DNA of 64,000 nucleotides from Escherichia coli (lineage in GTDB: Bacteria; Pseudomonadota; Gammaproteobacteria; Enterobacterales; Enterobacteriaceae): NCBI RefSeq assembly GCF_048403405.1, contig NZ_CP183129.1; one strand, given 5' to 3'. This document shows, piece after piece, positions 44,642-48,082 of this stretch (within the stretch, counting starts at the first letter, position 1; each line of letters begins with the position of its first letter). The notes beneath the pieces are model-generated. The model worked only from the letters and a program-made list of their open reading frames with translations. It searched no databases and was not told where the DNA came from. Both the position numbers and the translations under genes were made by a program.

Positions 44642-46144
44642 TTACGCCGCAATGGCGTTCATGATCGCCGGAACGGAAAGCTCTGCCAGCGGGATCTCCG
44701 CCACCTGTTTGCGATCGCGCATGATAATCACCCGATCGGCATAGCCCACCAGCTCTTCCAGTTCGGAGGAGATCACCAGCAGCGCCAGACCATCAGCGCA
44801 CAGCGTTTCAATCAGGCGGATGATCTCGGCATGCGCACCAACATCAATGCCGCGGGTTGGCTCGTCGAGGATCAGAAATTGCGGTCGGGTCAGTAGCCAA
44901 CGTGAAAGCAACACTTTTTGCTGATTGCCGCCGGAGAGAAATTCAATCGGTTGTTCAGTTGAAGGTGTGCGAATGCCAAGCTGGCGGATAAAGCGTTGGG
45001 CAATCTCTTGCTGTTCTTTGCGGGAAATCGGTCGTAGCCAGCCGCGCTGGGCCTGGAGAGCGAGGATGATATTTTCCCGCACCGAGGCGGCGGCGATGAT
45101 GCCATCGGTTTTCCTGTCTTCCGGGCAGAAGCCGATACCCAGTACCGAAGCCTGATGTGGCGATCGCAGGGTTTGCTGTTTGCCTTTGATCAACGCCGTG
45201 CCGCTGTCAGCAGGTTTGATCCCGAAGATCACTTCGGCGGTTTCGGTACGTCCTGATCCCAGCAAGCCTGCCAGGCCAACGATCTCGCCGGGGCGTACTT
45301 CGAGATCAAACGGTGCGATCGTTCCTTTTTTGCCGTAATTTTTGAACGCGGCAACGGGTTTGTCGCTCAGCAATGTTCGTCCGGCACGCTGTAGCGCGTG
45401 GGTGTCCAGCTCACGCCCCAGCATCATTTTTACCAGTTCGATCTGCGGTAGCTCGCGGGTTTCCCGACAGCCTACGAAACTGCCGTTGCGTAAGACGGTG
45501 ATCCGATCGCTGACCTGATAGACCTGATCGAGAAAGTGAGTGACAAAGATCAGGCTGACGCCGCGATCGCGCAACTGACGCATCAGGCCAAACAGTAACT
45601 CTACTTCCTGAGTGTCGAGACTGGCAGTGGGTTCATCGAGGATCAGCACTTTGGCGGAGAGATCGATAGCCCGGCAAATGGCGACGATTTGCTGCATCGC
45701 GACTGAAAAGCGGTTGAGCGGTTCGCGCACGTCGAGGGAGAAACCGTAAGATGCCATCAGTTCGGTGGCGCGCTTTTCCATCTCTTTACGGCGTAGAAGG
45801 CCGAAACGTTTGGGTTCGCGACCTATGAATAGATTATCAGCGACCGACATATTGGGTAGCAGGTTGACTTCCTGATAGACGGTGCCGATGCCGAGTTGTT
45901 GTGCGTGGGCGGTATTTTTCGGTGAGATAGTCTGGCCTTCCAGCCAGATGGTGCCACGATCGGCGTGGTAGACACCGGTTAAGGCTTTGATTAGCGTTGA
46001 TTTTCCCGCCCCGTTTTCACCGAGCAGCGCCATGATTTCACCACGGCGCAGGCTGAAATTAACGTTATCTAACGCTTTGACGCCGGGGAAAAATTTACTT
46101 AATCCTTCGGTGCGGAGGATTTCCTGGTGTTGGTTAGTATTCAT
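44642..46144 (-). CDS. ytfR: Galactofuranose ABC transporter ATP-binding protein (duplicated ABC domains)
   Basis: ORF 44642-46204; start chosen at MNTNQHQEILRTEG (500 aa); Walker A GENGAGKST and second-domain GLLGSGRTE. Confidence 0.9.
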   Translation of the reverse strand: MNTNQHQEILRTEGLSKFFPGVKALDNVNFSLRRGEIMALLGENGAGKSTLIKALTGVYHADRGTIWLEGQTISPKNTAHAQQLGIGTVYQEVNLLPNMSVADNLFIGREPKRFGLLRRKEMEKRATELMASYGFSLDVREPLNRFSVAMQQIVAICRAIDLSAKVLILDEPTASLDTQEVELLFGLMRQLRDRGVSLIFVTHFLDQVYQVSDRITVLRNGSFVGCRETRELPQIELVKMMLGRELDTHALQRAGRTLLSDKPVAAFKNYGKKGTIAPFDLEVRPGEIVGLAGLLGSGRTETAEVIFGIKPADSGTALIKGKQQTLRSPHQASVLGIGFCPEDRKTDGIIAAASVRENIILALQAQRGWLRPISRKEQQEIAQRFIRQLGIRTPSTEQPIEFLSGGNQQKVLLSRWLLTRPQFLILDEPTRGIDVGAHAEIIRLIETLCADGLALLVISSELEELVGYADRVIIMRDRKQVAEIPLAELSVPAIMNAIAA

Positions 46145-46189
46145 AGTTTCCCCCGGTGAAAAGCGTGCGCCCGGTAAGCCAGATAAGAC

Positions 46190-46285
46190 ACAACAGCGTC
46201 GCATCAGGCATCTCGCACAATCGCCGGATGCGGCATAAACACCTTATCCGGCGGCGTACAAGTCGGCATCAGGCATTGATGCCCC
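46190..46285. repeat. REP elements between ytfR and ytfQ
   Basis: CGCCGGATGCGGCATAAACACCTTATCCGGCGGCGTACA and CGGCATCAGGCATTGATGCC. Confidence 0.8.
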
Positions 46286-47242
46286 TCAATACCCCATATT
46301 TTTCTTTTTCTCTAACTCTTCTTTTGCGGTATCAGGCAGATAAAGGGTGGATTTGGTCAGTGTTAGCTTTTCAGGCATGGTGCCGTCTTTTTTGTATTTC
46401 TCCAGCGCGTCGAAAGCAGGACCTGCCATGTTCGGCGTCAGTTCAACACTGGCGTTCGCTTCGCCATCAATCATCGCTTTGTAGATATCCGGTACGCCAT
46501 CAATGGAACCCGTGAGGATATCTTTACCCGGCTTCAGGCCCGCTTCTTTAATTGCCTGAATTGCGCCAATCACCATGTCATCGTTATGGGCGTAAACCAT
46601 GCAGATGTTTTTGCCGTTGTTTTCTGCTTTGATAAAGCTCTCCATCACTTCTTTGCCTTTGCTGCGGGTGAAGTCACCTGACTGCGAGCGGATAATTTTG
46701 ATATTTGGCGCATTCTTAATGGCTTCGGCAAAGCCTTTCTTACGGTCAATGGCGACGCTGGCCCCAACGGTGCCCTGCAGCTCCACCACGTTGCATGGTT
46801 TGCCATTCACTTCTTTTACCAGCCAGTCACCAATCAACTTGCCTTCGAGGATGTTGTCGGCGGTGACAGTGGTCATATAGAGAGATTTGTCTTTCACATC
46901 GATGGAACGGTCAAGCAAGAAGACCGGGATTTCGGCATCTTTCGCCTCTTTTAATACCGGCTCCCAACCGGTCGCTACCACTGGAGCGATAAAGATCGCA
47001 TCCACCCCTTGCGCGACGAAGGAACGTACCGCTTTAATCTGGTTTTCCTGCTTTTGCTGACCATCGGCAATTTTCAACGTAATTCCGCGCTTTTCGGCTT
47101 CACTTTTCGCCACATTGGTTTCTGCGGCGCGCCAGCCGGATTCCGATCCGACCTGCGAAAATCCAACGGTTAATGGAGCGGCCAACGCCATAGACGACAT
47201 GGCTGCCGAGACTGCAGAGACTACAAGTAAGCGTTTCCACAT
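46286..47242 (-). CDS. ytfQ: Galactofuranose-binding periplasmic protein of the ABC transporter
   Basis: 318-aa ORF with an N-terminal signal peptide (MWKRLLVVSAVSAAMSSMALA). Confidence 0.9.
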   Translation of the reverse strand: MWKRLLVVSAVSAAMSSMALAAPLTVGFSQVGSESGWRAAETNVAKSEAEKRGITLKIADGQQKQENQIKAVRSFVAQGVDAIFIAPVVATGWEPVLKEAKDAEIPVFLLDRSIDVKDKSLYMTTVTADNILEGKLIGDWLVKEVNGKPCNVVELQGTVGASVAIDRKKGFAEAIKNAPNIKIIRSQSGDFTRSKGKEVMESFIKAENNGKNICMVYAHNDDMVIGAIQAIKEAGLKPGKDILTGSIDGVPDIYKAMIDGEANASVELTPNMAGPAFDALEKYKKDGTMPEKLTLTKSTLYLPDTAKEELEKKKNMGY

Positions 47243-47312
47243 AGGGTTGTCCTCGTCGGGGTAATTATTATTGGTGAAAAGATGTTCGCGAAAAAACTAT
47301 AGACAATTCGTT

Positions 47313-47333
47313 ATGTAACGGATTGCGTTACAT
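47313..47333. promoter_or_regulatory. Palindromic candidate operator in the ytfQ-ppa divergent promoter region
   Basis: ATGTAACG-GATTG-CGTTACAT, perfect 8-bp arms around a 5-bp spacer. Confidence 0.4.
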
Positions 47334-47551
47334 CACACTTCAAAAAAGTAAATAAAACGTTAATCACAAGTTTGTAATCGCTTTCATCTCACTATGAAAA
47401 ATGCGGCTACGGTTATGGATTTTCCTGCTCTTTAAACCATCTTAAAACTGGCTAAAAAGGAAAATGAAGAAGAAAACAAGCGAAGACATTCGGCGCGAGT
47501 TGGCTATAATACTCGGCACTTGTTTGCCACATATTTTTAAAGGAAACAGAC

Positions 47552-48082
47552 ATGAGCTTACTCAACGTCCCTGCGGGTAAAGATCTGCCGGAAGACATCT
47601 ACGTTGTTATTGAGATCCCGGCTAACGCAGATCCGATCAAATACGAAATCGACAAAGAGAGCGGCGCACTGTTCGTTGACCGCTTCATGTCCACCGCGAT
47701 GTTCTATCCGTGCAACTACGGTTACATCAACCACACCCTGTCTCTGGACGGTGACCCGGTTGACGTACTGGTCCCGACTCCGTACCCGCTGCAGCCGGGT
47801 TCTGTGATCCGTTGCCGTCCTGTTGGCGTTCTGAAAATGACCGACGAAGCCGGTGAAGATGCGAAACTGGTTGCGGTTCCGCACAGCAAGCTGAGCAAAG
47901 AATACGATCACATTAAAGACGTTAACGATCTGCCTGAACTGCTGAAAGCACAGATCGCTCACTTCTTCGAGCACTACAAAGACCTCGAAAAAGGCAAGTG
48001 GGTGAAAGTTGAAGGCTGGGAAAACGCAGAAGCCGCTAAAGCTGAAATCGTTGCCTCCTTCGAGCGCGCAAAGAATAAATAA
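47552..48082 (+). CDS. ppa: Inorganic pyrophosphatase
   Basis: 176-aa ORF; consensus -10 TATAAT about 45 bp upstream. Confidence 0.95.

Follow-up and report, generated by a model that had tools for sequence, protein, structure and literature searches.

Which protein, if any, reads the inverted repeat that lies in front of ytfQ in Escherichia coli? The ytfQ promoter drives the galactose/arabinose-furanose transporter, and the gal regulon counts among the textbook systems. Even so, the core of this promoter carries a conserved element for which the literature searched names no binder. The object itself, a probable operator, is an ordinary one within a textbook regulon, and it is its architecture that is unusual.

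Conservation of the inverted repeat

In the 64-kb stretch of DNA that was analysed (the window), a spacer of 309 bp separates ytfQ (46286-47242, minus strand) from ppa (47552-48082, plus strand). A 401-bp ppa/ytfQ stretch, annotated as ppa and ytfQ, is present in 5,425 of 5,426 complete E. coli genomes. The plus strand reads ATGTAACGGATTGCGTTACAT at 47313-47333, that is ATGTAACG-GATTG-CGTTACAT, with perfect 8-bp arms and a 5-bp spacer, exactly as the initial annotation had described it. The distance of about 70 bp to the ytfQ start given there is also correct, the end of the palindrome being 71 bp from the ATG. In the ytfQ sense the sequence is ATGTAAC-GCAATCC-GTTACAT, and its place on the K-12 chromosome is 4449872-4449892. 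As a side remark on the neighbouring gene, the mechanical open reading frame of ytfR (44642-46204) has 520 aa and orthologous gene calls have 500 aa, so its first 20 codons are probably untranslated.

A single sequence, read without its conservation, gives weak and merely suggestive evidence for such a palindrome. In the window, 21 distinct perfect-arm palindromes (arms of at least 8 bp, spacers of at most 10 bp) were counted, many of them GC-rich and terminator-like, against 9.6 +/- 2.7 in dinucleotide shuffles. The probability of finding at least one such palindrome in a 309-bp spacer is 0.065, and 0.24 for 7-bp arms. Further copies of the palindrome with up to two mismatches were not found elsewhere in the window, and the heptamer ATGTAAC is not enriched in it (8 copies against 7.8 expected). 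Two other palindromes, at 13077-13097 and 36720-43, are near-identical and GC-rich (CCCTCTCCC..GGGAGAGGG), and are probably a repeated extragenic element or terminator hairpins.

Comparison across species is more informative. ytfQ loci were taken from one genome per species, plus Klebsiella, Cronobacter and Siccibacter, and 26 Enterobacteriaceae promoters were aligned. ATGTAAC-N7-GTTACAT is intact, with invariant spacing, in 24 of the 26, which represent at least 11 named genera; Klebsiella, Cronobacter and Siccibacter also carry the palindrome. One of the two exceptions is a strain of E. cloacae, where a single change breaks a pair, and the other is Pluralibacter gergoviae, where both arms have decayed, a joint decay that fits one single unit. 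The mean majority fraction is 0.978 in the arm columns against 0.796 in all columns. The 6 bp that follow the palindrome vary freely among the aligned promoters, and the spacer occurs in ten different versions, the CA at its positions 2-3 being the sole invariant part. The version of K-12 MG1655, ATGTAACGCAATCTGTTACAT, has 7-bp arms, and the eighth arm pair is complementary in just 9 of the 24 orthologous sites and unpaired in the other 15; the eighth pair therefore lies outside the conserved unit. Judged by the alignment, the conserved element is ATGTAAC-N7-GTTACAT, with 7-bp arms and a 7-bp spacer, so that the 8-5-8 description is right for the source strain and does not carry over to the family.

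The palindrome is absent from Pantoea, Erwinia, Tatumella, Serratia, Pectobacterium, Yersinia, Budvicia, Aeromonas and Vibrio. From this absence and from the conservation pattern it is concluded that the element is real, selected and specific to Enterobacteriaceae sensu stricto, and the alignment supports its interpretation as a selected cis-acting element of the ytfQ promoter. In Enterobacteriaceae bacterium RIT691, about 110 bp containing an ERIC-like core (AAGTGACTGGG) are inserted after the conserved CTATAG and ahead of the ribosome-binding site; the palindrome of this strain, upstream of the insertion, is intact.

The predicted promoter and its flanking operators

The elements of the region, all on the minus strand, are the following.

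47393..47430, minus strand: tandem AraC-type half-sites GAGCAGGAAAATCCATA / TAGCCGCATTTTTCATA, with a 21-bp period, upstream of O_E
47372-47387, minus strand: upstream GalR/GalS operator O_E, ATGAAAGCGATTACAA (15.3 bits, second-best match in 64 kb)
47322..47337, minus strand: CRP-like core TGTGA-TGTAAC-GCAAT, with TGTGA at 47333-47337 and the left palindrome arm as the 6-bp spacer of the site
47313..47333, minus strand: the palindrome, with conserved arms at 47327-47333 (promoter-distal) and 47313-47319 (promoter-proximal); predicted position about -44 to -24
47296..47306, minus strand: TTGTC-TATAGT, with invariant TTGTC and the -10-like TATAGT at 47296-47301
47225-47240, minus strand: downstream GalR/GalS operator O_I, GTGGAAACGCTTACTT (18.8 bits, best match in 64 kb)

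The palindrome belongs to an invariant block that reads, in the ytfQ sense, TGTGA-ATGTAAC-(G/T)CA-N4-GTTACAT-N6-TTGTCTATAG. Its register is fixed, with the invariant TGTGA 1 nt in front of it and the invariant, -10-like TTGTCTATAGT (CTATAG) 30 bp further on, and TTGTCTATAG, which is 100% conserved, always begins 30 bp after the first arm. The TGTGA is invariant in 26 of 26 promoters and occupies the equivalent position in Pantoea/Erwinia, Aeromonas and Vibrio, all of which are without the palindrome; in the genera that do not have it, the full CRP-like site is TGTGA-N6-TCGAC. Conservation inside the palindrome spacer is asymmetric, and the invariant CA agrees with the right half, (T)CA(CA), that a CRP site would have.

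TATAGT is a good candidate for a -10 hexamer, and would place the start of a promoter ('P2') near 47289, which corresponds to about 4449915 in K-12. A consensus scan returned nothing on the minus strand, and no -35 match was found at the ytfQ promoter; the lack of a -35 match is usual for class II CRP promoters. The distance from the centre of the CRP core to the -10-like hexamer is 28 nt at ytfQ, compared with 29 nt at mglB, and this puts CRP at about -40.5, that is, in a class II position, with the palindrome at about -44 to -24. Compared with the class II arrangement (TGTGA-N6-TCACA near -41.5), the left half of the site agrees in 5 of 5 positions and the right half in 2-3 of 5, and the centre lies at -40.5 from the predicted -10. 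The palindrome thus probably overlaps the spacer and the right half of the CRP site, as well as the -35 region of a class II CRP promoter. In a delta-cya strain, ytfQ and ytfR have been reported to be 3.6- and 5.2-fold down (PMC4512719). A second TGTGA (TGTGATTAACGTTTTA, 47341-47365), 31 bp upstream of the conserved one, is confined to the Escherichia/Citrobacter/Enterobacter cloacae group, where it could act as a distal CRP site peculiar to that lineage.

Control by the galactose repressors is already documented for this region. The ChIP-chip sites of Qian et al. (2016), minus the own site of ytfQ, served to build a GalR matrix, which was scanned over the window. O_E, present in every member of the Enterobacteriaceae examined, is listed in Table S1 of that study (K-12 4449817-4449832), and O_I, at K-12 4449964-4449979, is the published ChIP-chip site with a ratio of 22 (PMC5110547 Tables 3 and 4). 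The 22-fold GalR enrichment at ppa/ytfQ ranks third after galP and galE, and this peak is too coarse to separate the palindrome from the operators, which lie 57 and 90 bp away. O_I overlaps the ytfQ start codon and codons 2-6, which belong to the signal peptide (MWKRLL). As a separate observation, O_I is conserved as DNA out to Pantoea/Erwinia, so that coding sequence there doubles as operator. With 147 bp between them, the two operators bracket the predicted promoter. The distance from the palindrome to O_I ranges from 84 to 89 bp among species, and no helical phasing constraint is evident between the two. Other matches to the matrix, of 14.5-14.8 bits, occur at 63532-63546, 17575-17589 and 1244-1258, the first of which (CTGGCATCGTTTACA) is the qorB site predicted by Qian et al. 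(2016).

The AraC-type half-sites have one mismatch each with respect to TAGC-N7-TCCATA. Their distance to the centre of O_E is fixed at 29.5 bp in all genera, and that to the palindrome goes from about 35 to 140 bp. From this rigid AraC-O_E module, and from the variation of about 100 bp that separates it from the palindrome block, we infer two promoters: an AraC-dependent one at the module, with a start predicted just downstream of O_E, and a second, CRP-dependent one at the palindrome. Control of the ytfQ operon by AraC and GalR/GalS has been cited before (PMC10191376). The initial annotation had treated the palindrome as the site of an unassigned regulator; this is adequate for the element itself, which is selected and has no assigned regulator, and must be amended for the region, where GalR/GalS, AraC and cAMP-CRP control have all been published.

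A proposed split GalR/GalS site and related heptamers

The reading that we favour, with a probability of roughly one in three, is that the palindrome is the operator of a cAMP-CRP-dependent ytfQ promoter, most likely for GalS/GalR (or a close relative of the LacI family) acting in a split mode. These proteins are proposed because the arms are GalR/GalS-type half-sites, with 7 bp between them where a canonical operator has 2. An occupant covering about -44 to -24 would keep out CRP and RNA polymerase, and would also obstruct transcripts coming from the upstream AraC-dependent promoter. The DNA-binding domains of GalS/GalR would grip the two half-sites without the canonical hinge-helix geometry, as a flexibly tethered 'split operator', and the palindrome would work as a weak auxiliary operator whose occupancy is aided by the two strong GalR operators that flank it. 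The transcription start, the repression and the identity of the binder are all predictions.

The resemblance of the arms to GalR half-sites is close. TGTAAC is the commonest outer hexamer among 18 ChIP-derived GalR sites, both ATGTAAC arms fit the half-site TGnAAn, and ATGTAAC-CG-GTTACAT would be a perfect GalR operator, from which the palindrome differs by 5 extra central bp. As a whole, the palindrome is not a canonical operator. The canonical GalR/GalS operator has been described as a 16-bp hyphenated dyad, GTGNAANC.GNTTNCAC, centred between positions 8 and 9 and with positions 3, 5, 9 and 15 (G, A, G, A) reported as essential. The best 15-mer of the palindrome reaches 7.2 bits, compared with 14.4-22.1 for the ChIP-derived sites; in its best register, ACGCAATCCGTTACAT, position 9 is occupied by C (T in K-12), and the central C.G is missing. 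The comparison with LacI/GalR matrices that had been recommended at the outset therefore recovers the half-sites, but not a canonical operator (7.2 bits against at least 14.4). That no regulator could be named is borne out: neither the literature nor the sequence search gave an assignment for the palindrome, and the 165 GalR operators of Qian et al. (2016), which contain both flanking sites, do not include it.

Other operators of the gal regulon (galE OE/OI, galP, mglB, galS) share with the palindrome arms their preferred half-site, as can be seen in OI of galE (...GGTTACAT) and in the mgl operator (ATGTAACCGC...). The arrangement at ytfQ also resembles that of gal in that two GalR operators enclose the promoter, and the regulated gene codes for a galactose transporter. 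By contrast, the palindrome spans 21 bp instead of 16 and has no central CpG. Precedents for LacI-family proteins on split repeats are provided by CytR and by the cre-var sites of CcpA in clostridia and bacilli. The cre-var site TGTAAA-Yx-TTTACA is a split inverted repeat whose first example has a 7-nt spacer (PMC5263246). There, as at ytfQ (TGTAAC/GTTACA), the hexamers of a LacI-family protein (TGTAAA/TTTACA) are split by a spacer; the organism and the protein are different, and the spacer of cre-var differs between sites whereas the palindrome keeps exactly 7 bp across genera. Another point of comparison is the lac O3-type pseudo-operator, which is likewise weak and suggests that the palindrome could need strong neighbours for its occupancy, although the spacing of lac O3 is canonical.

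In favour of a split GalR/GalS site, the two best GalR-matrix matches of the 64 kb are precisely those that flank the palindrome. Against it, a spacing of 7 bp puts the half-sites about half a helical turn out of phase, and the C at arm position 7 never varies, even though GalR accepts any base at that position. If GalR/GalS do occupy split or orphan half-sites, the definition of their operator and the genome-wide predictions made from it, which consider 16-bp dyads only, would be incomplete, and the 'flexible site' behaviour of CytR and CcpA would be extended to enteric bacteria.

The same heptamer is found, as an orphan, at the two other galactose uptake loci. In the mglB leader, TATGTAAC(A/G)G is invariant in all five genera compared (E. 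coli, Salmonella, Citrobacter, Enterobacter and Franconibacter), the leader sequence there being TGTAACCCGTATGTAAC. The heptamer follows the mglB -10 by about 26 nt and keeps a distance of 87-88 bp to the mgl operator dyad, and one helical turn upstream of it there is a TGTAAC or TGAAAC. In galP, the stretch that separates the two GalR operators is poorly conserved and contains a GTTACAT that is invariant in five of five genera. This heptamer lies about 206 bp upstream of the K-12 galP ATG and 65-67 and 116-118 bp from the operator dyads; its partner, (T/C)GAA(A/G), is 10-11 bp away. The conserved distances of the orphan heptamers to canonical operators at mglB and galP are also in agreement with a split GalR/GalS mode. 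As full GalR operators, these orphans reach just 0.5-2.5 bits, and they are in none of the published GalR site lists. The base that follows ATGTAAC at ytfQ, mglB and galP is never the C of the canonical operator and is usually a purine, a preference that could point to a different protein. What marks the copies of the heptamer at the three loci, as far as the alignments tell, is conservation alone and not abundance. Two further conserved sequences were noticed beside the orphans: a GTGA(A/T)TAATCAC palindrome after the mglB element in four of the five genera, and TTTC(A/G)GT..AGTC following the galP element.

We tentatively propose, with rather more doubt than confidence, that ATGTAAC(R) might be the recognition element of an input common to all three galactose-uptake systems of the Enterobacteriaceae, arranged as an inverted pair at ytfQ and as a tandem TGnAA-N5-TGTAAC at mglB and galP. 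Such an input could act through a spacing-tolerant (CytR-like) mode of GalR/GalS or through another transcription factor.

Other explanations

The second of these possibilities, an operator for a different transcription factor recognising ATGTAAC(R), perhaps also on the mglB/galP tandem TGnAA-N5-TGTAAC, is only slightly less probable than the favoured reading and accounts for several features. The heptamer, together with its invariant C and following purine, is tighter than a GalR half-site requires; at mglB and galP the partner repeats in the same orientation, with a period of 10-11 bp, an arrangement that a two-fold symmetric LacI dimer could not occupy in the canonical way; and the absence from published GalR site lists applies to the ytfQ element as it does to the other two. 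If a different factor binds, control of the three galactose transporters would gain a new common input. One possibility is a winged-helix response regulator; the consensus sequences of OmpR, CpxR and RstA resemble the ATGTAAC heptamer. However, a search of supplementary data from an OmpR ChIP study gave no entry for ytfQ, mglB or galP, no candidate protein emerged, and no regulator gene lies adjacent, ppa being the divergent neighbour in all genera examined. The exact match of the heptamer to a GalR half-site makes GalR the more economical choice. We take the spacing or the key bases of several other motifs to be incompatible with the palindrome, namely the TyrR box (TGTAAA-N6-TTTACA), the UvrY box, the LysR T-N11-A motif, the HexR site, the σ54 and σE promoter motifs, and the IHF and EcoKI sites.

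More improbable is an operator for CytR acting together with cAMP-CRP by anti-activation. CytR is a LacI-family member that accepts the octamers AATGYAAC / GTTRCATT in either orientation and with variable spacing next to CRP. The octamers of the palindrome, GATGTAAC and GTTACATA, each agree with this consensus in seven of eight positions, and the left arm plus spacer, ATGTAACGCA, is one base off the udp CytR half-site ATGCAACGCA. CytR/cAMP-CRP operators (udp, deoP2, nupG, tsx, cytR) likewise consist of octamer-like repeats with odd spacing that adjoin CRP sites. A CRP site within 5 bp, usually in tandem, is expected for CytR; at ytfQ a CRP half-site abuts or overlaps the palindrome, a situation for which nupG and tsx, where CytR half-sites overlapping the proximal CRP site have been reported, are precedents, and some genera have the second TGTGA 31 bp upstream. 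On the other hand, this distal TGTGA is missing in most genera that keep the palindrome, so that there are no conserved tandem CRP sites, and the palindrome lies on or downstream of the proximal site and not between two of them. The TGCA core of CytR, which is retained in designed probes, reads TGTA in both arms, and the spacing (7 bp in 24 of 24 intact sites) is out of phase and outside the classes that CytR favours (at most 4-5 bp, or 10-13 bp). Moreover, no functional tie is known to connect the nucleoside regulon with this transporter, and the literature search found no regulation of ytfQ by CytR.

It is slightly harder still to believe that no extra factor is involved, and that what CRP, RNA polymerase and DNA shape demand at a class II promoter explains the conservation in full. 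The left arm is inside the CRP site and the right arm in the -35-to--10 spacer, and in Pantoea and Erwinia the homologous promoter exists without the palindrome. But CRP is indifferent to its 6-bp spacer: at mglB this spacer changes between GTGATT and GTAAAT among genera, while TGTAAC is invariant at ytfQ. There is no known requirement for GTTACAT at -30 to -24, and both the dyad symmetry and the joint loss of the arms in one species would have to be coincidences.

Least credible is an RNA hairpin acting on stability, processing or attenuation in the 5' UTR of transcripts from the AraC promoter. The palindrome would be transcribed if a promoter lies next to the AraC sites, and a stem of 7-8 bp is possible (about -7 kcal/mol with DNA parameters) and is seen in the RNA centroid structure; nevertheless, the whole leader is no more stable than its shuffles (z = 0.01), no Rfam family matches, compensatory changes are missing (the arms are invariant, the E. 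cloacae change is unpaired and the eighth pair is open in 15 of 24 sites), and the fixed register to TGTGA and TATAGT favours a role as DNA. An intrinsic terminator is ruled out, the stem being AT-rich and without a U-tract, and none was found at the palindrome. In the 5' UTR itself (47243-47285), a conserved block, CCAA(C/T)AATAA...CCCTACGAGGA, is situated after the -10-like element and ahead of the ytfQ start codon, and might be a translational target, an sRNA target or an alternative -10.
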